A stretch of DNA of 52,563 bases from Planctomycetota bacterium (lineage in GTDB: Bacteria > Planctomycetota > Planctomycetia > JALXBF01): NCBI GenBank assembly GCA_026991575.1, contig JALXBF010000115.1, positions 1-52,563 of the forward strand. The letters run 5' to 3'. The notes beneath the pieces were generated by a model. The model worked only from the letters and a program-made list of their open reading frames with translations, made no database searches and was not told where the DNA came from. The first letter of the stretch is position 1. Each line of letters starts with the position of its first letter. Shown here one piece after another: positions 15,210 to 52,140 of the stretch. The position numbers and the translations under genes are program-made.

Positions 15210-15575
15210 GCTGCCGGTCCGCCCAGGCGAACTCCGCGTTGGGGGGAAGTCTCAGGTTTTTTGCGGACCCGCTCTTGGGACGGGTCGTTGCGAAGCAGTG
15301 CCGGAAACGGCCTTGGGAGTAGCCCCGGGCGCGTGTGGCCGTGCGGATTCCGCTTCCCAGCCCTGTCGGATGACCGACCGAGGAAAAGCCTCGCGCTCGC
15401 CCGTGTGCGCAAGCGATAGCACGAAACCACCTTCTGGCTGCCCGTAAACCTGACGGTCACGCTCGCCGCGCCAGCGGGACACAGCCGGGCCCTGCTTTTG
15501 CTGCTATCGCCCTCTCCGCATCGGAAGGCCAGATTGCTCCCTGCGGTGACTATCCCCGGCGAGCACCCCCGTGCC

Positions 15576-15619
15576 AAAAGAAAAACGCCCGCTGGCCGGC
15601 AACCATTGCCGGCCAGCGG
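15576..15619 (-). terminator. Intrinsic terminator downstream of tmRNA
   Basis: 14-bp stem CCGCTGGCCGGCAA/TTGCCGGCCAGCGG with a 3-nt loop (15589-15619), followed after a short spacer by TTTTTCTTTT on the minus strand. Confidence 0.85.
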
Positions 15620-15632
15620 ACGCGGTCGTCAG

Positions 15633-15992
15633 TGGAGGCGGCGGGAATCGAACCCGCGTCCCGCGACAGCTCGGTGAGGGCTTCTACGTGCGTAGCCGGT
15701 CTAGTTCGTCTCGCCCAGCCGGCTCTGACCGGCAAGAGCACAGCTGAGCCAGTCCGGAGTGGTTTCTCGTCGGAGCCTCCCCGGACACCGGCTCCGACCA
15801 GCCCGGTTCACGGCCTCTTGCAGGTTCCCCCGGGCGAAGGATCCTGCAGAGGGGCTACGTGTTTCGCTTACGCAGCCAGAGCATAAGAAGGAGTCGCACT
15901 TATTGTGCAGTCGGCTTGATAACGGGGCCTGCCGACCAACCCCGGCACGCCACCTCTCACCTCGTCTGCCCGGTCGATACCAATTCGCCCCC
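15633..15992 (-). ncRNA. ssrA: tmRNA (one-piece), tag reading frame (A)ATPSYALAA*
   Basis: 5' GGGGGCG..TATCGAC, 3' T-arm GCGGGTTCGATTCCCGC and acceptor CGCCTCCA with a G.U pair. Internal ATAAGT-GCG resume context; tag at 15897-15868. Adjacent to smpB. Confidence 0.95.
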
Positions 15993-16222: not shown

Positions 16223-16693
16223 CTATCTTCGCTTCAGCATCCGCTGGCGGATCGCCTTCTTGGCCTCGCGTTCCCTGATCTTCTCCCGTTTGTCGTACTG
16301 GCGTCGTCCGCGTGCCACGGCGAGCTCCACCTTGGCCAGGTGTCGTTTGAAGTAGATCCGCAGCGGGATCAACGTGTAGCCCTTTTGCTGGACGCGGCTG
16401 GCCAGCTTCTCGATCTCGCGCCGATGCAGCAGGAGTTTCCTGGGGCGCTTCGGCTCGTGGTTCATGGCGCCGGCTTCCGGATAGATCGGAATGTCGGCGT
16501 TGACCAGCCACACTTCGCCGTTCTTGATGCGCGCAAACGCTTCTTCTATGGAGGCCTTACCACGACGCAAGCTCTTGACCTCCGTGCCCATCAGCGCCAT
16601 GCCAGCCTCGATCGTTTCCAGGATGTCGTAGTCGTGTTTGGCCTTACGGTTCCGGCAGACGATTTGTACGGCCTTGGTGTTTTGGGCGGCCAT
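16223..16693 (-). CDS. smpB: SsrA-binding protein SmpB
   Basis: NRKAKHDY, EAGMALMGTEVKSLR, RKLLLHRREI, YDKRE. Confidence 0.97.
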   Translation of the reverse strand: MAAQNTKAVQIVCRNRKAKHDYDILETIEAGMALMGTEVKSLRRGKASIEEAFARIKNGEVWLVNADIPIYPEAGAMNHEPKRPRKLLLHRREIEKLASRVQQKGYTLIPLRIYFKRHLAKVELAVARGRRQYDKREKIREREAKKAIRQRMLKRR

Positions 16694-16732: not shown

Positions 16733-17746
16733 CTAGAGCGCTCTGCCGATTGCATCGGCCACTCGGGCACACTCCAGCATCATACGTTCGAAGGCTTCCA
16801 AGTTTAGTGACTGATAGCCATCGCTCCAGGCCTCGTCCGGTCTGGGATGGACCTCGACCAGGAGTCCGTCGGCGCCGGCAGCCACGGCGGCTCGGGCCAT
16901 GGCCGGCACCAGCGACGCCTTGCCCGTGCCGTGGCTCGGGTCGACGATGATCGGCAGGTGAGTCCGCTCTTGGAGGTAGGGGACGGTCGCCAGTGGCAGC
17001 GTGAAGCGGGTGTGCGTTTCGAACGTGCGGATGCCGCGTTCGCAAAGGATCACCTGGCGGTTGCCGCGGTCCAGGATGTATTCGGCAGCGAGCAGGAACT
17101 CGTCGACCGTTGCGCCGTGGCCGCGTTTCAGAAGCACCGGTTTGTCCAGCTCGCCAACGGCCTGTAGCAGCAGGTAGTTTTGCATGTTGCGGGCGCCGAT
17201 CTGGAGGACGTCGGCGTATTCGGCGACGAGCGGAACCTGTTCTGGCGCGAGTACTTCGGTCACCACAGCCAGTCCGGTTTCTTCGCGTGCCCGGGCCAGC
17301 AGCTCAAGGCCTTGTTTGCCGAGGCCCTGGAAGCTGTACGGGCTGGTACGCGGCTTGAACGCGCCGCCGCGCAAGGCAGTAGCCCCGGCTGCTTTGACCG
17401 CCCGGGCCGTGGCGAGGATCTGTTCTTCGGTTTCGACAGAGCAGGGGCCTGCGATGACAGCGACGCGGCTGCCGCCGACCTCAAGGGATCCGGTGCGAAC
17501 GATCGTCTTCTCGGGGCGGACTTCACGCGAGGCGATCTTGTACGGGGCAAGGATCGGCACGACCTGCTCAACACCGTCCATCGTCTCCAGCGCTTCGCGC
17601 GCACCGTCGCGCTTCTCACCAATCGCCGCCACGACGGTCCGCTCGGTACCGACGATCACGTGCCCTTTCATGCCCATTGCTTCAATCCTCCGGACCACCG
17701 CGTCGATCAAAGGTTGCGGGACCTTGGGTTTCATGACGACAACCAT
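16733..17746 (-). CDS. aroF: DAHP synthase (type I-beta, N-terminal ACT-like regulatory domain)
   Basis: [52 protein letters not shown] 17746 with GGAGG RBS. Confidence 0.95.
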
Positions 17747-17777
17747 CGCGTTAGCCTCCCTCGTGTTTCGAAAACGC

Positions 17778-17817
17778 AAAAGAAAAAGCCCTGAGGCTTC
17801 TCTGGGCCTCAGGGCTT
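17778..17817 (-). terminator. Attenuator terminator in the aroF leader
   Basis: 12-bp perfect stem AAGCCCTGAGGC/GCCTCAGGGCTT followed by a U-rich tract, about 30 nt upstream of the aroF start. Confidence 0.88.
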
Positions 17818-18151: not shown

Positions 18152-19468
18152 TCATCCGTACACGACCAACTTCTCCGTAAACGGAACAGCCATCCCCTCC
18201 TTGGAGCGGTGCCTGATGTACACGGCTCGATCACCTGGCCGACGAACGGAAACGTACATCTCGATGGTCATCTCCTTGGTGCCGGGAGTCAGATCGACCA
18301 CGACCTGACCCTCCGGGACGTTGCTAAGCCACTGATCTCTTAGCCCTTGCTGAGCCTCCACGAGCCGATCAGGGCTATCGAACTCGCAGAACACCCAGCG
18401 AGGTGACCGGGCAATCAAGCCTCTGGAGAAGCGTGCCACAAGGTCCCGAATCTCCTCGGCCTTCTGCCTCATGTTCTGCGTGTACAGCAGCAGCACCCGG
18501 TCCGGCTGTGTGGCGACGACGCTATAGAAAGCCGAAGCAGCGTTGCCGCTGGCGATCGTGACCAGCGTGTCCGCCGACTGCTGGCCCGTCTGCTGCAGCC
18601 ACTGCTCCCGCAACGCTGCAGCAACGCGGGGCATTACGACCCGCTGATAGTACGCCCTGGCTTTCTCATACTGTCCGGACGAAATCAGACGATCGAAGTA
18701 CTTTTGATGCTCTTGCGGCGGGGCGTCGGCTCGCGGGGCGGGCGGAAAGAGGTCCTTGCACGCCCGGAGCACCTCCCGAAGATCACGGTGCCGGCAGCTT
18801 AGCGAAACGATCTTCAACTCAGCACCCAGTTCTGCGCGCTTCCGCTCCGCTTCTTCTCGATTGAGCTCCGGAACCAGCAGTCGCTCTGCGCCGAGCTCCA
18901 CCGCAAGCTCGACCTTCTGAGGGATTCCCTTCACCGGAAGCACGCCAGACTCAGGGGACCACTCACCCGTGGCAAGACAGCGCAGCGGAGCCTCCAGCGT
19001 ATCCGCAACATCCAACAACGCGATCGCCGCGGGAACCCACCCGGACTCCCATCGCACCAGACTTGCGTCTGTCAGCAGCTCCACCGCCTCTTTCGATACC
19101 CCCTCGGGGGCACATAGGCGCCAGCCAGGCACGTCGAGGCTTCGGCTGACGCGGTCACCGAACGGCAGCACCAGACCGTCATCAGCTGCACCCGCCCGGC
19201 GCCACACAACCGGCAGCGCAATAGCCTGCCGCAGCAGCGGCACCTCCGCCAGCAGCACAAACAGAATCGCAGTGCGCCCTTCCCCGGTTGCTTCGGCCAG
19301 GTCCATCCTGTGGCTGTTGCCAAAGAGTTCATCCAGCCGGCGGAGCGCAGCCGGACACAAGATCCAGACACTCCACGGGCCGAAGGCTCGGGCAACCTGC
19401 GTTAACCGGCCCGGGGTCAACGCATCCAGTTCGGTATCGACTAGACGCAAGAGATCCGATCGAGTCAT
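18152..19468 (-). CDS. Lon-type (S16) protease domain fused to a C-terminal CARF-like domain, no AAA+ module (copy 1)
   Basis: WESGWVPAAIALL...LATGEW...GVLPVKGIPQKVELA..LGAERLLVPELN. Ser codon 19043-19045 and Lys codon 18914-18916 are 43 residues apart. The C-terminal ~140 aa has TLVTIASG..PDRVLLLYT..VVVDLTPGTK..AVYI. Start could be GTG 19540. Confidence 0.8.
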   Translation of the reverse strand: MTRSDLLRLVDTELDALTPGRLTQVARAFGPWSVWILCPAALRRLDELFGNSHRMDLAEATGEGRTAILFVLLAEVPLLRQAIALPVVWRRAGAADDGLVLPFGDRVSRSLDVPGWRLCAPEGVSKEAVELLTDASLVRWESGWVPAAIALLDVADTLEAPLRCLATGEWSPESGVLPVKGIPQKVELAVELGAERLLVPELNREEAERKRAELGAELKIVSLSCRHRDLREVLRACKDLFPPAPRADAPPQEHQKYFDRLISSGQYEKARAYYQRVVMPRVAAALREQWLQQTGQQSADTLVTIASGNAASAFYSVVATQPDRVLLLYTQNMRQKAEEIRDLVARFSRGLIARSPRWVFCEFDSPDRLVEAQQGLRDQWLSNVPEGQVVVDLTPGTKEMTIEMYVSVRRPGDRAVYIRHRSKEGMAVPFTEKLVVYG

Positions 19469-19584
19469 CGGAGTGCTCTTGCTCCGCTTCGATTGTTCCC
19501 CCGTTGTCGCCGGCGACAGCTCTCGTCCTCGAGATACCACTCGCCGGCCACCCCCGTGCGCTTACTGTCGTTACGCCAACAGTG

Positions 19585-20757
19585 TCAGCCTGTCGATTCA
19601 GGCCTCTCGTCCTGTTCGACCACACGCTGGGCTTCGCGCAGGGCGTCCAGGTCCGGCGGCCACTCCAGCGGCTCTGTTCCCGGTATGCTCACCTCAAGCC
19701 GCACCGGGGTGTCTTCAGCCAGTTGCCGGCGAAGTTCACGGACTGAGAACGAACAACGGCCTGATTCGTCGATGGTGGTCGTGACGCCGGCCAGTCGAAC
19801 CAGGCCCCCGGCCAGTTCCGTCGCCTCACTGCCGTCCGAATGGCGCACGAACAGCATTCGGATCTCGTCTTCGTCGCTCAGCGGATAACGGATTCTGCTC
19901 TCGGCACGGTACCGCCGCTGTGGATCGTGCCAGACGAGCCAGACCGGGATCCCGGTTCCGCGAGCAGCGGCTCGCACGGTGATGAGACCTGGCGGAAAAC
20001 GGGGATACTCCGGCTCGGGCCGTGGGGGCTCCATTGCGTAGACTACCGCTTCCGCCTCTGCGGCGGTGGCAGCGGCTGCCGTGAGCCGAGCGGTTAGCTG
20101 CTGCAGATCGCGTTCAACGTCACGTGCCAGGGCCTCGGCTGCTTCATCCAGGCCCGGCCCCAGCCACCACGGGGTCTCGTGGGCGTACTCGGGCACGATC
20201 GCGTCGCGCCAGCGCTTCAGCAGCGGGTTGCCGCGAACGGTGCACAAAACGTCGACCTGCTCACGCAGCGCTCGGTCGTACTCATTGAGCGCATCAGTCA
20301 GGCGCCCGACCAGCCCCAGGAACTCCTCATCGGTCACTTCCCCTGCGTCGACCGCCTCAAGCAGTCTGTGTGTCAGCCCGGTATAGACCGCCTGGGCTTC
20401 CATGCGGTTGACGAGCGCGTCCAGACAGAGCTGTTCGCGCCGGGTGAAGTCCTCTTCCGCATCCCACTGCTGGCCGAGCTTACGGGCCTGGTCGGCAAAC
20501 GCCAGAAAGGCTTCGGTGGCTTGGGCCGTACCTAGTCGAACCAGGTGCAACGGGATCTGGCCAGGCAGCTGGTCCTGGGCAACCCCGAACAGAAGACACT
20601 CGCCCAGTGCTCGGGCCGCCGTGTAAGCGACGCGACGAGCCTCTGCGTCGTCCGTGGTCGGTTCGGTCACGGCCTGGTGTCGGAGTGCCTCAGCCAGTTC
20701 CCGTAACGGGGAAGCCGTCAATTGTTCACGCAGTCGCTGGATCTCTTCTGTGTTCAT
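19585..20757 (-). CDS. Uncharacterised protein, putative anti-sigma factor/protease substrate (copy 1)
   Basis: Long ORF with GGAG RBS lying between the sigma-like and Lon-CARF genes. Its C-terminal domain is visibly homologous to that of 50959-52140. Function is inferred from context only. Confidence 0.6.
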   Translation of the reverse strand: MNTEEIQRLREQLTASPLRELAEALRHQAVTEPTTDDAEARRVAYTAARALGECLLFGVAQDQLPGQIPLHLVRLGTAQATEAFLAFADQARKLGQQWDAEEDFTRREQLCLDALVNRMEAQAVYTGLTHRLLEAVDAGEVTDEEFLGLVGRLTDALNEYDRALREQVDVLCTVRGNPLLKRWRDAIVPEYAHETPWWLGPGLDEAAEALARDVERDLQQLTARLTAAAATAAEAEAVVYAMEPPRPEPEYPRFPPGLITVRAAARGTGIPVWLVWHDPQRRYRAESRIRYPLSDEDEIRMLFVRHSDGSEATELAGGLVRLAGVTTTIDESGRCSFSVRELRRQLAEDTPVRLEVSIPGTEPLEWPPDLDALREAQRVVEQDERPESTG

Positions 20758-21023
20758 GGCTGCTCCGGCGGAAAATCCGCGTTTCCAAGACAAACCGTTC
20801 CAAACCAACCGGTCGGGGTCAGTTCAGCCACTGCCTCTGCCTGCATTTGTTACGACCCAGGGCGCAGACTCCTGACAGGAACCAGCCGCCACGTCTGCCG
20901 GGAGTCGCCGGCGGAGCCGGTCGCTTCCGGTCCTTGCCAGCCTGCCGGTACCATGGGCGGCGGCATGTGCACGTCGTGCTTCCGTCACGATGGCTGCCTC
21001 TGGGGTAACGTGACCGGTGCGCG

Positions 21024-21791
21024 TCAGCCGCGCAAGTTCTCGCGGAGTTCCTGAATCGCTTTAAGCTGCAGGAGATATCGCTTCTTCCGGCTCCACACGG
21101 CGTGCACCACAGCGGGGGAAACGCCTAGTTCCTGAGCCAGCGCCGTAGCGCGTCCGTGTTCCCACCCGGGATGGTCCAGATGAGGGGGTGGAAAGGATGC
21201 CGGGAGCTTGGCTTCGCTGCACCACTGGGCCCACACGACCGCTGGCACCTTGCGGTGCATTCCGGCCAGCACAAGCAGGATGATCCGGTCGCGTACCGGG
21301 ACCGACGCGAGAACTTCCAGGTCGTGCTGGCAAAACGGCTCGTTGCGTGCGGCGGTTTCGGCCGGTCCTGGAGCCGGGTCGTGCGGATCAAGGTGCGGGG
21401 CAGAACCGCCGTCATCGTGTTTGCGACCACCGCCGGTTGCAAGCTGCTCCCAGGACAGCTCTCGTCTTCTTTTCTTGACGAGATCGAGCAGGGCATTCTT
21501 CAGCACCCGGCGCGCCCAACCGACGAAGGGACTGCCGGCGCTGGGATTGTACGCTCCCTGCAGTACCTTCACCATCGCGTCCTGAACAACGTCCTCAAGC
21601 GTGGCGTCGTCGAAGCGGTTGCCGAAATGCAGTGCGTTCAGCATTCGCGACACCTGCATGAGCGCGTCGCGTACCCGGAGCGCAGCCGCGTCCTCTTGAT
21701 GCGGTGAAGCAGTTGGGTTGAGCAAAGTGGATACGGCAGCGTGTAACGCCGTTTGCTGCCCGGATGTCTGTTGCCCTTGACCCGCTGCCAT
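21024..21791 (-). CDS. ECF-like sigma-70 family sigma factor (copy 1)
   Basis: Region 2: LEDVVQDAMVKVL..YNPSAGSPFVGWARRVLKNALLDLVKKRRR. Region 4-like: LASVPVRDRIILL and ALAQELGVSPAVVHAVWSRKKRYL. Start could be GTG 21803. Confidence 0.8.
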   Translation of the reverse strand: MAAGQGQQTSGQQTALHAAVSTLLNPTASPHQEDAAALRVRDALMQVSRMLNALHFGNRFDDATLEDVVQDAMVKVLQGAYNPSAGSPFVGWARRVLKNALLDLVKKRRRELSWEQLATGGGRKHDDGGSAPHLDPHDPAPGPAETAARNEPFCQHDLEVLASVPVRDRIILLVLAGMHRKVPAVVWAQWCSEAKLPASFPPPHLDHPGWEHGRATALAQELGVSPAVVHAVWSRKKRYLLQLKAIQELRENLRG

Positions 21792-21996
21792 TGGAACTCC
21801 CACGTTCTCTCAGCGCAACCGTCCGCATCAGTGAGTACAAGCCGGGGGTTCAGCGTGCCACCACAGAGGCTGGCCACGCGATCGGCTGCCCTGTCGCGGC
21901 CGACAGCAACAGCAGGCCGTTCCCGGGTGCCCGACTGCCTGTCTCGCGGGCGTGACGCGTTCGGGTTTGCTTGCCCCGCGACCGAAGGCGCCCGCT

Positions 21997-48004: not shown

Positions 48005-49483
48005 ATGAACCACTTCCGTACTGCTGTTCGCCAGGTCGCGCCGGACAGAACATCTGGTCGACGCACAATGCATGGGGTCACGATTTCAAGGGAGACGTTC
48101 GATTCCCTCGCGGAGCTTGCCGAAGAATACGGCCGTCGTCCCCGGTTGCGGCCATACATCGCAGAGAAGGCCTGTGATCTGGTGCAAGCCTTCGCTCCGT
48201 GGTGGCTAACGGCCGAGGCCCTGGCACAGGCCAGCCGCAGTGGTACTCCGCCCGCAGATGCGGTGGATCCTGCAAGGTTCACCACTCACGGCCTGGCCCG
48301 CATCCTTTGCCTGTGGCCGACGGCACTGGCCGCGACCATCGAACGAACGGCACCCGCGCGGGACGGTGCTCGCTTGTTACGCGACGCTTGCGTCTTGCCC
48401 GTGCGGTGGGTTCTTGGTGCTTCGCGGCCTGTCAATCCTCTTCCCGATCCACTGGCTCAACTCGCTGAGACTGTCCGATGCGAACTACGGGAAGTCGGCC
48501 TGTTGGCGCACGGCCAGGAAGTCACCCTGGAGTGGTGCCTGGGCCCCTATCGCTTGAAGAGCCCCATCGAGTTCTGTGATGTACAGCTAAGTCTTGCGTC
48601 CGGCTTCGTCCCTTTGGCCTCGGCACTGATTGTGGCAGCGAACGGAGGCGAGCCTGCCGTGGGCGTGTGGTCCACGGGAGCGTGGAACGCGGAGTTCAAC
48701 TTTTGCGAGAACGTGGACGGCGTGCCGCAAAAGGTGCGGACAGCGCTTTCGTTTGGTGCCGAACACGTTTTCGTCCCCTCCGGAAACTACCACGAAGCAG
48801 CAAGGGAAGCAGCCAGGCCCGAGCAGGTGCATGCGCTGGCCGTGGGGCCATCGCTGGACCGAGTGCTCGCGCCGCTGTTGGTGGCCTATCGGGCAGAGCC
48901 ACCTGCCAACGCCTCCTACGAGGAGAAACGCGCGTACTACGTGTACACAGCCGAGTACGATCCGTCGCGCGCACGACGGTACTACGACCGGGCACTCCTG
49001 GAAGACGTCGCGGCCCGAGTGACGCAACGGATGGATGCCCAGCTTTGCTCGCTTGTGGAAGGCCGCTGCGCTCTGGTAACCGTGGCCAGCCAGAGTCCAG
49101 GTGTCGTGTTGCTGGCGGCTTTGGTATTCCGCCCTTGCCGAATCGTGCTCGTGTACGACGATGCGCAGGCCGCCAAGCAGGTGAATGACGAACTGAGGCA
49201 ACGCGGTTACAGCAACGTGGTATGCCTGAGGCTGGACGAAGACCATTTGGGCACAGTGAGGCAGCTCGCCGCAAAGATCAACGAGTGCACAGCGGGCCTG
49301 CCTGTCATCATTGACCTGACTCCGGGTAGCAAGAGCCACACGCTTGCGCTCTACCGGGCACCTGTACAACGGGCCCATCGCGTCTATCTGAGGAACCGCT
49401 GGACCCAGCCGTCCCGAAAGGGGGCGCGGGGGATCGAGGACCCCGACACGATGCAATACGTGACGGTGACAGACGACCAGTAG
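48005..49483 (+). CDS. Lon-type (S16) protease domain fused to a C-terminal CARF-like domain, no AAA+ module (copy 2)
   Basis: LASGFVPLASALI...WSTGAW...VDGVPQKVRTA..FGAEHVFVPSGN. Ser codon 48599-48601 and Lys codon 48731-48733 are 44 residues apart. C-terminal ALVTVASQ..PCRIVLVY..IIDLTPGSK..RVYL. Start may be ATG 48068. Confidence 0.78.
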   Translation: MNHFRTAVRQVAPDRTSGRRTMHGVTISRETFDSLAELAEEYGRRPRLRPYIAEKACDLVQAFAPWWLTAEALAQASRSGTPPADAVDPARFTTHGLARILCLWPTALAATIERTAPARDGARLLRDACVLPVRWVLGASRPVNPLPDPLAQLAETVRCELREVGLLAHGQEVTLEWCLGPYRLKSPIEFCDVQLSLASGFVPLASALIVAANGGEPAVGVWSTGAWNAEFNFCENVDGVPQKVRTALSFGAEHVFVPSGNYHEAAREAARPEQVHALAVGPSLDRVLAPLLVAYRAEPPANASYEEKRAYYVYTAEYDPSRARRYYDRALLEDVAARVTQRMDAQLCSLVEGRCALVTVASQSPGVVLLAALVFRPCRIVLVYDDAQAAKQVNDELRQRGYSNVVCLRLDEDHLGTVRQLAAKINECTAGLPVIIDLTPGSKSHTLALYRAPVQRAHRVYLRNRWTQPSRKGARGIEDPDTMQYVTVTDDQ

Positions 49484-49573
49484 CTGCTGGTGCCACGGCC
49501 TCCAGAGGCTACGGGATCGACTGCTGGGACACCAGAACGGGGTGGCGTCGGTAGCGTAGCAGAGCAGAAGGTG

Positions 49574-50605
49574 ATGAGTGAGACCACACTTTACGGCTAC
49601 ACCTGCGAACAGTTGCAGAATCTCATCACGCGCGCCCGCAGCCTGGAAGACAACGACGCAGTCAGCGAGTTGCAGGGGCTGCTGACGAGGCTCGTGGAGA
49701 GTTTCCTCACGGGAGTTCCAGTGCCCCCCGGTCATTCCAGCGTAGAGTTCCAGAAATTCTTGGCGTTAGAGATCGTCCAAGAGCTCCTCTGCCATATCGT
49801 CTGGCCGCGGTCAGACGGTCGATACGCTTTCGACATCGGAAAAATGGACTCTGTCGACTCGCTGCGGGCGTGGGTCAGGGAGTGCGTGCGGCGGTGGCGC
49901 CGCAGGCAAGGCAGCGAGCGCCGCGTGAAACGGTTCACGGATCTGAAACGGGACGACAACGACGACGACACGGAACCGCCCAGCGTCAGTTTGGTTGATC
50001 CGAAGAGTCGACACCCGGTCGAAGCGATCGAACCGGACCCTCCGGCCCGGTACGTGTCCATCATGGGGTGCCTTTTTGATATCACCCAGTGGGCCGCGAG
50101 GCGACTGGCCAGCAAGAAATCGCTTGCGCAGGAATGGGTTGTTCGCTATTGGTTGTACGTCCGGCTGCGCTTGTACCAGCTGCTCTGTCGCCATGAGGAG
50201 AAGACGGTACGGCGCCCCTTGATTCTCCGCCTGGCCGAACGGTACATACCGTGGGATCCAGCCGTGGAGAACGTACCGTTGGCCAGGGACTGGCCAACGC
50301 TGGGGATGTGCTGGCAAGGCTTCGCCCGCCGAGCGGAAAGGCAGGAGACCTACGCGCAAACCTGCCTCATTGAGACCGTGTACGACCATCGCGCAGCGCA
50401 GGAGCCTTTCTCGGCTACGGACGAAGAGGCGGTGAAGAGAGCGATTCGAAATCAATGGGACCAGTGGTGCAGCCGGCTGCGCCGGCACCTCAAGGAGGCA
50501 GTAAGCGGTGTCTGCCCCTGGCACGAACCGGACGATACTCAACGCCAGGCTATGGAACTCTGGCACGCCGTTGCCTTTGGGGTACCGGAACGAGCCACCG
50601 AGTGA
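49574..50605 (+). CDS. Highly divergent ECF-like sigma factor (copy 2)
   Basis: Region-2-like EIVQELL..AFD..SLRAWVRECVRRWRRR, acidic linker, and C-terminal NQWDQWCSRLRRHL resembling copy-1 AVWSRKKRYL; same module context. Confidence 0.55.
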   Translation: MSETTLYGYTCEQLQNLITRARSLEDNDAVSELQGLLTRLVESFLTGVPVPPGHSSVEFQKFLALEIVQELLCHIVWPRSDGRYAFDIGKMDSVDSLRAWVRECVRRWRRRQGSERRVKRFTDLKRDDNDDDTEPPSVSLVDPKSRHPVEAIEPDPPARYVSIMGCLFDITQWAARRLASKKSLAQEWVVRYWLYVRLRLYQLLCRHEEKTVRRPLILRLAERYIPWDPAVENVPLARDWPTLGMCWQGFARRAERQETYAQTCLIETVYDHRAAQEPFSATDEEAVKRAIRNQWDQWCSRLRRHLKEAVSGVCPWHEPDDTQRQAMELWHAVAFGVPERATE

Positions 50606-50958
50606 GTCGTAAAACGTTGAAGATGCCCCGGGGCGGTCTCAGCCGCGTTGCGCTTCCGTGTCAACAGCACTCGGCCCGGAAGGGTCAGAGCCGGTGGCAA
50701 CGATTGGACACCGCCTCTGCGGGTGGCCAGCATGGTTGGGAACCCGCCAGGAGGACCGGCGAGCGGTGTCGCATGAGGCCGTGGTCACGCTGAGGCGTCG
50801 AGTGGGAGCACGGCTGATGCGTCAGAAAACGCCGCGCTCTGCCCTATGAGGATGGAGAGGTGTACTGCCGGGCCTGCCCCGGCCTCTTCACGGTTCGGAA
50901 GGAGCCGGCCAAGTGTTATCAGACGTGGAAGGATCGTTACAGAGCGGAGCGACACAAG

Positions 50959-52140
50959 ATGGCTTCAATGAGAGTCGAGGCACAGCTGGCACGCCTGCAC
51001 AGCGAGTTCAACGTAGTCCTGCCCGATCCGGCCCGTTTGCTGCGCTGCTGGATCACAGAGTTCACGGAACTGTTGCCCAGGTTGCCCGAAGCGCTTGATG
51101 GGGACGATCCCACAGTTGCGCGGCGGCTGCTTACGTCCTGGGCTCGTCTCATGCGTGCCAAGCCCGCGCTTGTTGCGGCGGCTGCCGGCAGGCCACCTGA
51201 GCCAGGCGGGGGGGTGGCAGAGCAACTCGGGCTTCCGGAGCTGGCCGCGTGGGAGAGGCGTCTGCGAGATGAGCACATGGCGGCACTCGTTGAGAGGGCG
51301 AAGGCCACGGCCAACCCGAAGGCCTGGTCGGAGAGGCTCCAGGTGCTTCGCCGCGCCGTGGATGCGGCCGAGGAACCTGAGGACCTGCCGGATCGTACCG
51401 TCGAGCTTCTCAACGATCTGGACGAGCAGGAACTCCTCGACGCCTGCGCCGTGTACGCAGGCAGAACCGACCTGTCCTCGGAGGCGCTACTCGGTGTGCT
51501 CCGGGCTGCGGTGTGCGCGGAGGTTGACCTGTTCCTGCCGGCACGCGAGTACGTTCTTGAGGTCGCCCAAACACTACCGGGTGAACCCACGCACGCGGCG
51601 TTCGCTCCAACGTACTCGAAGTTCGAAGCGATCCTGGACGAGATTCTGGCAGCTGAACTGTTCGCCGAGGGACCGGCCGCGCCATCCTGGTTCCGAACCG
51701 AGCAACTCTTGGCCGAGACCATGCTGATCGGGATTGTCGCCGCCCTGCTGGAAGCGTATCGAGCCCAGCGGCCGGCGGTCCTGGCCGCTGCTGGTGAAGC
51801 CGAACGCGAAGAGTACCGCTCGGCACTCTGGCTCAGCCCTGATAAGCGGTTTGTGGCGCAACTGAGATGGGCACCTGCGGATGCGGCGCGACGCAAGCTG
51901 CCGATCCTCTTTCGCCACGCCTCGATGGTCCAGCGGCAAGTAGTACCGACAGATGCTGCCAGTGAGCTGGCGGGTGCCCGCGTTGAGTTCGCCGGTGCGA
52001 CGGCCGTCATCGACGAGCAGGCGACGGCCTGGTTTGACGTGGATGCGCTTGCGCCGGTCGAGAAAGAGCGAAGCTGGCAACTTGCCCGGCTGGTCGTGCG
52101 CCGCAACGGAACGACAGAGACGTGGACTTTGACCAAGTAG
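50959..52140 (+). CDS. Uncharacterised protein, putative anti-sigma factor/protease substrate (copy 2)
   Basis: Long ORF. C-terminal LAAAG..LWLSPDKRF..ILFRH..ASELAGARVEFAG..IDEQ..F matches the C-terminus of 19585-20757. Confidence 0.6.
   Translation: MASMRVEAQLARLHSEFNVVLPDPARLLRCWITEFTELLPRLPEALDGDDPTVARRLLTSWARLMRAKPALVAAAAGRPPEPGGGVAEQLGLPELAAWERRLRDEHMAALVERAKATANPKAWSERLQVLRRAVDAAEEPEDLPDRTVELLNDLDEQELLDACAVYAGRTDLSSEALLGVLRAAVCAEVDLFLPAREYVLEVAQTLPGEPTHAAFAPTYSKFEAILDEILAAELFAEGPAAPSWFRTEQLLAETMLIGIVAALLEAYRAQRPAVLAAAGEAEREEYRSALWLSPDKRFVAQLRWAPADAARRKLPILFRHASMVQRQVVPTDAASELAGARVEFAGATAVIDEQATAWFDVDALAPVEKERSWQLARLVVRRNGTTETWTLTK

Follow-up and report, generated by a model that had tools for sequence, protein, structure and literature searches.

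What kind of sensor sits at the C-terminal end of a Lon-type protease encoded by a member of the Planctomycetota (lineage JALXBF01), and what might it make the protease do? The window analysed here is the whole of contig JALXBF010000115.1 (C115; 52,563 nucleotides) of assembly GCA_026991575.1, a genome that is 97.8% complete and lies in 191 contigs. An initial annotation, made from the sequence alone, had read positions 18152-18575 as a single C-terminal CARF-like sensor of ~140 amino acids with a DLTPG(T/S)K motif, which would be activated by ligand binding at a CARF dimer and might be a ring nuclease. This range holds residues 322-462 (141 codons), together with the stop codon, of a gene that we designate CARF-Lon copy 1. 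The C-terminal domain of its product is a genuine single CARF domain, and the protein is a member of a CARF-Lon family that has been catalogued and is uncharacterised. The genes and motifs on which the analysis turns are the following.

18152-19540, minus strand: CARF-Lon protease gene copy 1, 462 amino acids when read from GTG (in the database the protein begins at M25, position 19468, and has 438 amino acids)
18746-19360, minus strand: Lon-type (S16) protease domain without ATPase, residues 61-265 (phmmer, VIA)
18587-18721, minus strand: two helices ahead of the CARF core, residues 274-318 (alignment with the TtCsm6 N-terminus)
18155-18586, minus strand: CARF core, residues 319-462 (domain model and structural matches)
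18548-18565, minus strand: LVTIAS, strand 1, residues 326-331, with S331-G332-N333 as CARF motif I (script)
18275-18295, minus strand: DLTPGTK, CARF motif II, residues D416-K422, after strand 4 (position checked by script)
18209-18220, minus strand: Y441-I-R-H444, counterparts of TtCsm6 Y161 and N164 (profile alignment)
48005-49483, plus strand: CARF-Lon gene copy 2, 492 amino acids (PADLOC PDLC01981, E 2.2e-67)
49313-49333 and 49073-49090, plus strand: copy 2 motifs DLTPGSK and LVTVAS, respectively (script)
Contig C183, 32245-33669 (L012:14245-15669), plus strand: third CARF-Lon paralogue, 474 amino acids (PDLC01981, E 6e-77)

The motifs DLTPGTK, DLTPGSK and LVT(I/V)AS lie where the initial annotation had placed them, in the C-terminal parts of their open reading frames (ORFs). 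Copies 1 and 2 are 26% identical. When the entire genome was translated in six frames (9.9 million residues), the pattern D[LIVMH]TPGxK turned up only three times, each time in one of the three CARF-Lon paralogues.

The C-terminal Domain Is a Single CARF Domain

Models were calculated with AlphaFold2 from an alignment of 139 sequences, comprising the three paralogues of this genome, sequence P0002, and 135 of the 150 listed rows of a profile search for relatives. The 15 rows left out (P0001, P0014, P0022, P0070, P0088, P0118, P0122, P0124, P0127, P0138, P0140, P0147, and P0149-P0151) are the window's own protein, fragments, partial matches, and much longer chains. The predicted local distance difference test (pLDDT) was 93.5 for the full-length model and 95.1 for a model of the domain alone (residues 319-462). 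Both the order and the alternation of the elements agree with the beta-alpha pattern suspected from the sequence: strand 1 (325-329), helix 1 (334-344), strand 2 (348-354), helix 2 (355-375), strand 3 (381-387), helix 3 (390-403), strand 4 (413-416), helix 4 (422-432), strand 5 (438-443), a hairpin, and strand 6 (457-461).

To compare this fold with known structures, the domain model was searched against 48,161 PDB representatives with VIA. All 23 chains with a Z score of at least 8 are CARF proteins, led by TtCsm6 (8jbc; Z 14.9, root-mean-square deviation [rmsd] 2.0, 132 residues aligned), and followed by Can2 (8bao, 14.8), Can1 (6sce, 14.6), Can2 (7bdv, 14.5), St Csm6' (13.7), and Card1 (13.4). 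Among the non-CARF chains, a universal stress protein ranks first, with Z 7.8; the best matches are thus CARF proteins and not the non-CARF Rossmann folds that the initial annotation had named as the outcome that would speak against its proposal. Foldseek gave the same picture, with Cam1 (E 4.8e-8), TtCsm6 (8jbb; TMq 0.80, rmsd 2.3), Card1, Cdn1, Can2, and Crn1 as leading matches and CARF proteins in all of the top 49 rows. Searched against PDB sequences, the family profile found TtCsm6 (E 1.5e-13), Cam1 (1.4e-6), Can2 (2e-4), and Card1 (0.013).

Classification by profile hidden Markov models had been suggested as a check. A PADLOC model of the CARF-Lon family covers the protein end to end (see below), and PADLOC CARF models match residues ~303-460 of copy 1 with E values of 4.5e-12 to 1e-6; the curated models stay under their cut-offs (Pfam CARF_Card1, 19.5 bits against 24.6; TIGR02710, 31.6 against 83.9).

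The proposed extent of ~140 residues holds for the CARF core and falls short of the full module. In the full-length model, residues 274-462 align with residues 3-185 of TtCsm6 (Z 17.6, 173 residues aligned, rmsd 2.5), the best VIA match overall, and the family profile covers residues 20-191 of the TtCsm6 chain. Because the helices of residues 274-318 align with the N-terminal helices of TtCsm6, we take the homologous unit to be residues 274-462 (~18155-18721).

That the domain is single is supported by its length, which from strand 1 to the end is 132-169 amino acids (median 147) in 139 of 139 relatives. The full model contains one beta-alpha core (325-461), with residues 1-60 and 274-318 helical and 61-265 in the Lon fold. 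This single core and the uniform length rule out a SAVED pair of two fused CARF-like halves. The Pfam SAVED model (PF18145) has no match in this genome, and likewise none in the control genomes.

The Putative Ligand Site Resembles That of TtCsm6

Following Makarova et al., CARF motif I is said to consist of a residue that follows strand 1 and is small or alcoholic, and motif II to read [DN]x[ST]xxx[KR] after strand 4. Copy 1 agrees with both patterns. The reading of DLTPG(T/S)K as a CARF ligand-loop motif is borne out: it is motif II, and its Lys aligns with K137 of TtCsm6. In the profile alignment, DLTSGTK of TtCsm6 pairs with DLTPGTK, and the chains of K137A and Y161A mutants in the same alignment fix K137 as the counterpart of K422 and Y161 as that of Y441. 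The third copy has DHTPGPK at this place. Across the 139 sequences, Asp is found in 138 and Pro in 122 at their columns of motif II; the remaining columns are given below together with the other positions of the putative site, as TtCsm6 residue, copy 1 residue, and conservation.

TtCsm6 G58: S331 (end of strand 1), S in 129 of 139
TtCsm6 T59: G332, variable
TtCsm6 S60: N333, S in 70 and N in 37 of 139
TtCsm6 T81: T354, T in 92 of 139, plus 8 S
TtCsm6 T133: T418, T in 128 of 139
TtCsm6 G135: G420, G in 138 of 139
TtCsm6 K137: K422, K in 123 of 139, plus 8 R
TtCsm6 Y161: Y441, Y in 113 of 139
TtCsm6 N164: H444, H in 97 and N in 9 of 139
TtCsm6 E179: E456, E in 104 of 139, plus 20 Q

The passages of PMC10897365 that deal with these residues, with which our TtCsm6 positions agree, describe cyclic tetra-adenylate (cA4) as bound across the CARF dimer, with binding abolished by K137A. 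According to the same passages, T81 binds the adenine, T59 and S60 are required for cleavage and activation, Y161 and N164 have a role mainly in cleavage, and E179 is part of a loop that is mobile and shuts over the bound ligand. As residues for binding and cleavage have counterparts in copy 1, the sensing of cA4, with the CARF site acting as a self-limiting ring nuclease, is plausible, and cA4 is our best guess for the ligand from the aligned residues.

Among solved structures, the sensor module is most closely related to TtCsm6 (TTHB152; 5fsh, 8jbb, 8jbc, 8jh1), with which we group Crn1 ring nucleases (Sso2081) as the same sensor type. CARF-Lon and TtCsm6 have motifs I and II and the counterparts of T81, Y161, N164 (His in copy 1), and E179 in common. 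They differ in that copy 1 has G-N in place of T59-S60 and H444 in place of N164, and in the effector, which is a C-terminal HEPN RNase in TtCsm6, whereas in copy 1 the Lon protease is N-terminal to the CARF domain.

The subthreshold scores of Pfam CARF_Card1 and TIGR02710, together with the loss of some ligand-site counterparts in copy 2, could be taken to mean that the CARF domain has degenerated into a scaffold without a signalling role and that Lon is regulated otherwise. We consider this very improbable, given that motif II is nearly invariant over 139 sequences whose mean column identity is only 19%, and that the Lys required for ligand binding in TtCsm6 is retained; the conservation of residues in this surface loop implies a ligand.

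Copy 1 Belongs to a Catalogued Family of CARF-Lon Proteins

The catalytic dyad of the protease domain consists of S166 (19043-19045) and K209 (18914-18916), both invariant in 139 of 139 sequences. A phmmer search matched the protease domain of the Archaeoglobus fulgidus Lon (1z0e, E 1.4e-4), whose catalytic Ser and Lys pair with S166 and K209, and in the VIA comparison the Lon fold of the full model reaches a Z score of ~14 to Lon and RadA protease domains. No AAA+ or other ATPase domain was matched by Pfam in the copy 1 protein. With its dyad intact, the protease is predicted to be active.

Copy 1 matches the PADLOC model PDLC01981, named "CARF_m2--CARF_LON", with an E value of 2.3e-81 over profile positions 1-406 of 408, and all three paralogues match over ~400 of the 408 positions. 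Since the whole protein matches end to end, the architecture is already catalogued: the order of a helical N-terminus, Lon, and one C-terminal CARF domain is the same in copy 1 as in this family, with no structural difference. The family is large. In an exhaustive profile search, 1068 relatives reached E <=0.001, 557 reached 1e-10, and 307 reached 1e-30, each representing a cluster at 50% identity. A word-indexed homologue search returned only five relatives.

Some family matches lie in considerably longer open frames (P0022, 853 amino acids; G135:C1:363567-364721, in a frame of 1127 amino acids; G210:C12:17135-18520, in a frame of 738 amino acids), where the CARF-Lon unit may be fused to further domains. 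At L020:106-1470, on a 3-kb contig of low coverage, CARF-Lon reads as two ORFs, one for Lon (106-1014) and one for CARF (1018-1470); a stop codon or frameshift, a mistake in the assembly, or a naturally split gene could account for this.

"CARF-Lon effectors" are presented in a review as bioinformatically predicted fusions, credited to Makarova et al. 2020, for which promiscuous proteolysis is speculated (PMC9704534). No experimental study of any CARF-Lon protein was found in the literature searched on CARF-Lon, CARF_m2, CalpL, and type III systems, where "Lon-CARF" is used only as the former name of CalpL. A close characterised system with a different sensor is CalpL-CalpT-CalpS (Rouillon et al., Smalakyte et al., Binder et al.). 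CalpL and copy 1 both have an ATPase-less Ser-Lys Lon domain behind a helical N-terminus, and at the C-terminus a sensor for cyclic nucleotides from the CARF/SAVED superfamily; both are encoded with a partner and an extracytoplasmic function (ECF)-type sigma factor, and both co-occur with type III systems. However, SAVED4 of CalpL consists of two fused CARF-like halves, whereas CARF-Lon has one CARF domain of ~140 amino acids and would depend on another chain for a symmetric site. No CalpL or SAVED chain was found among the matches listed (Foldseek with the full model; VIA on the top 1000 Foldseek matches; top 50 of the VIA domain search; sequence searches, with the best 60 of 75 for the family profile), which does not prove that the folds differ.

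This difference in the sensor bears on how the protease may be switched. The only characterised Lon proteases controlled by cyclic oligoadenylate use SAVED oligomers or filaments and cleave on assembly, as described in 10.1101/2024.05.08.593097 and PMC11229360, and the Lon domain and N-terminal helical part of copy 1 come in the order of CalpL. A real CARF domain could likewise act through higher-order assembly, with ligand-bound dimers or ligand-bridged chains stacking into filaments so that Lon reaches a partner on the next protomer, and not through the allosteric switching of a closed dimer. This is unlikely in our view: a single CARF offers one symmetric interface and no second CARF-like half for head-to-tail stacking, and the single-CARF effectors among the structural matches (TtCsm6, Can2, Card1) are described as dimers around one ligand. 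From the way such effectors build their ligand site, we infer that the CARF domain of copy 1 would act as a homodimer. A homodimer prediction with two copies of the CARF domain and the alignment, run without controls, scored 0.25 against a mark of 0.42, a result that counts neither in favour of a dimer nor against it.

Partner and Sigma Factor Genes Adjoin the Protease Genes

Both copies in the window are accompanied by further genes on their strand.

21024-21803, minus strand: ECF-type sigma factor gene, head of a same-strand trio (Sigma70_r2, E 2.9e-9, above the cut-off; TIGR02937, E 1.2e-8)
19585-20808, minus strand: T1, a partner of 407 amino acids directly upstream of copy 1 (no Pfam, PADLOC, or NCBIfam match)
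49490-50605, plus strand: protein of 371 amino acids, separated from copy 2 by 6 bases (unmatched in Pfam, PADLOC, and NCBIfam)
50860-52140, plus strand: T2, a partner of copy 2 with 426 amino acids (C-terminal domain in common with T1, BLASTP E 1e-5)

The trio runs on one strand in the order sigma factor, T1, and copy 1, with gaps of 215 and 44 bases. A search with an alignment of six sequences yielded eight related loci, all planctomycete. A homologue of T adjoins the Lon gene in seven of them, the eighth being on a 3-kb contig, and a sigma factor gene (a homologue or a Sigma70_r2 match) is close by in five. Eight proteins of the partner family were aligned (T1, T2, and six from the related loci; about 370-420 amino acids): they have a conserved C-terminal domain, an Ala-rich segment before it with the consensus AAAGE, and a central WD..EEP motif. 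T1 matches no Pfam family at E values up to 1, while T2 and the six others have only chance-level Pfam matches. The best profile match of the family in the PDB, to a chain named SAVED, is insignificant (E 0.2), and the ESM Atlas gave no usable match for T. As the partner family has no Pfam or PDB match, it is not CalpT-like by sequence: CalpT has MazF-like and DUF2080 anti-sigma domains, and T matches neither. By its gene position, T1 is a candidate substrate or anti-sigma factor, and one may speculate that the AAAGE segment is a candidate site for cleavage by Lon.

The gene that follows copy 2 (49490-50605) does not resemble the copy 1 sigma factor and matches no family. The third paralogue has no T-like partner by BLAST. 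An ECF sigma factor gene (L012:12603-13256, minus strand) and a gene resembling Ser/Thr kinases lie ~1 kb upstream of it on the opposite strand.

Both window copies are found among housekeeping genes, including smpB, a DAHP synthase gene, ABC transporters, and a glycosyltransferase. The DAHP synthase gene (16733-17779) is the neighbor of the CARF-Lon operon, and just downstream of it are smpB (16223-16693, minus strand) and an adjoining tmRNA gene (15632-15992, minus strand), whose tag is ATPSYALAA according to ARAGORN; a second, overlapping tmRNA-like call at 15366-15723 is probably spurious. At the other end of the window, an ORF that runs off the contig (52231-52563, minus strand) resembles the C-terminus of a transposase, which would explain why the contig ends after the module of copy 2.

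CARF-Lon Genes Track Cas10 at the Genome Level

The genome encodes a type III-B system on contig C183, with Cmr6/Cmr1, Cmr4, Cmr3, and a Cas10/Cmr2 with intact GGDD; the third CARF-Lon copy lies ~21 kb from this Cas10. Its Cas10 is of the Cmr2 type, with no match to Csm1_B (PF18211) in the genome. Tandem Repeats Finder revealed no CRISPR array on C183:1-20000, the only region searched for arrays. Two other CARF effectors, candidates for a response to cyclic oligoadenylate, are encoded on further contigs, a Can2/Card1-like CARF-PD-(D/E)xK protein on C162 (L022:600-2099, minus strand) and a CARF-HEPN protein of the Csx1/Csm6 kind on C27 (L023:1809-3416, minus strand). Since these are also far from the cmr genes, dispersal of effectors is a habit of this genome.

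A Cas10 match was found in all eight genomes that hold the related loci. In six it is near full-length (E <=6e-49), and in one it consists of two partial pieces; the remaining genome has a weak match with that Cas10 model and a Csm1-type Cas10 in the locus that is recovered with another model (E 2e-64). In an even sample of the phylum, 45 of 401 genomes have a Cas10 match at E <=1e-10; as many of the weak matches cover the palm region only, this figure is an upper bound. The CARF-Lon family is present in six of these 401 genomes, four of which also have a Cas10 match. It should be noted that the relatives are not independent, so that the co-occurrence serves as an indication rather than as a statistical test. 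At one related locus, L021, the protease gene abuts Cas10, Csm3, Csm4, and Csx1. The other side of the CARF-Lon gene at this locus (L021:531-6782) carries a type I-G/I-U set with Cas3g, Cas8g, Cas7g, and Cas5/6g.

A Putative Protease–Sigma Factor Switch

Taken together, we propose that copy 1 carries a single sensor of the TtCsm6/Crn1 type on an ATPase-less Lon protease, within a protease–sigma factor switch triggered by cyclic oligoadenylate; as a joint explanation, we hold this to be somewhat more probable than its failure. The type III-B Cas10, encoded on another contig, would detect foreign RNA and produce cyclic oligoadenylate, most likely cA4. Two CARF domains would clamp one ligand across their two-fold axis, contacting it through motif I (S331-G-N), T354, motif II (T418, G420, K422), and the loop of Y441, H444, and E456. 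Dimerisation, or the rearrangement of an existing dimer, would switch on the Lon domain, which would cut the partner of 407 amino acids and free the neighboring ECF sigma factor; the outcome would be a transcriptional alarm as in CalpL-CalpT-CalpS. The CARF site probably also cleaves the ligand slowly and so would reset the switch.

Several observations weigh against this reading. Two concern the ligand site, namely G332-N333 of copy 1 where TtCsm6 has T59-S60, and the lack of counterparts of T354 and E456 in copy 2. As a result of such differences between the copies, ring-nuclease activity, and even the choice of ligand, may differ from copy to copy. The output side is affected as well: no anti-sigma, MazF, or DUF2080 domain could be recognised in T, and copy 2 has no sigma factor gene recognisable by Pfam or by comparison with that of copy 1. 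Lastly, the CARF-Lon genes are, unlike the Calp genes, mostly unlinked from cas loci. Neither window copy is near cas genes, in seven of the eight related loci cas genes are absent within 10 kb of the protease gene, and two of the six sampled genomes with the family have no Cas10 match (one of them is 75% complete, and in the other the CARF-Lon match is weak).

This scattering, the two sampled genomes with the family and no Cas10 match, and the position of both copies among housekeeping genes would suit a CARF domain that senses a signal not made by Cas10, such as a different nucleotide or the end of an RNA, in line with what has been proposed for housekeeping CARF regulators; sigma factor, T, and Lon would then form a stress switch independent of CRISPR. 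We judge this improbable. Cas10 is present in every genome of the close relatives against barely more than a tenth of the phylum sample at most, L021 lies directly beside its cas genes, the residues that contact cA4 in TtCsm6 are conserved, and the other CARF effectors of the genome are equally scattered from the cmr genes.

The proposed cyclic oligoadenylate switch can be carried further, to a version that we put forward tentatively, as rather doubtful in its entirety. Here the two-fold dimerisation of a single CARF would switch Lon, in contrast to the SAVED filaments of CalpL and to the AAA+ ring of classical Lon, and a His-containing ring-nuclease site would reset it; partners of ~400 amino acids and of a kind not yet described would be cut, possibly at AAAGE, freeing an ECF sigma factor; and three diverged paralogues, with different partners and partly different ligand sites, would be wired, though unlinked, to one type III-B system.

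Implications

With CalpL it became clear that type III CRISPR systems can respond to infection through proteolysis and altered transcription, and not only through the destruction of nucleic acids. The copy 1 protein is a putative CARF version of this protease switch, with an architecture that has been catalogued; its family is large and has been listed since 2020. What it offers is a comparison, in which the same protease output is joined to a half-site sensor that must pair, as opposed to the stacking, pseudo-dimeric SAVED of CalpL. Unusual features are the partner T, which belongs to no known family, the presence of three paralogues in one genome, and the distance from the cas genes in spite of the co-occurrence with Cas10. 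For annotation, these genes should be named CARF-Lon, and not CalpL or SAVED-Lon. This genome also illustrates that effectors encoded at a distance from cas genes nevertheless go together with Cas10 at the level of genomes. With three paralogous CARF-Lon modules in one genome, the extended version of the switch, if true, would mean that one CRISPR alarm leads to several separate transcriptional or proteolytic outputs.

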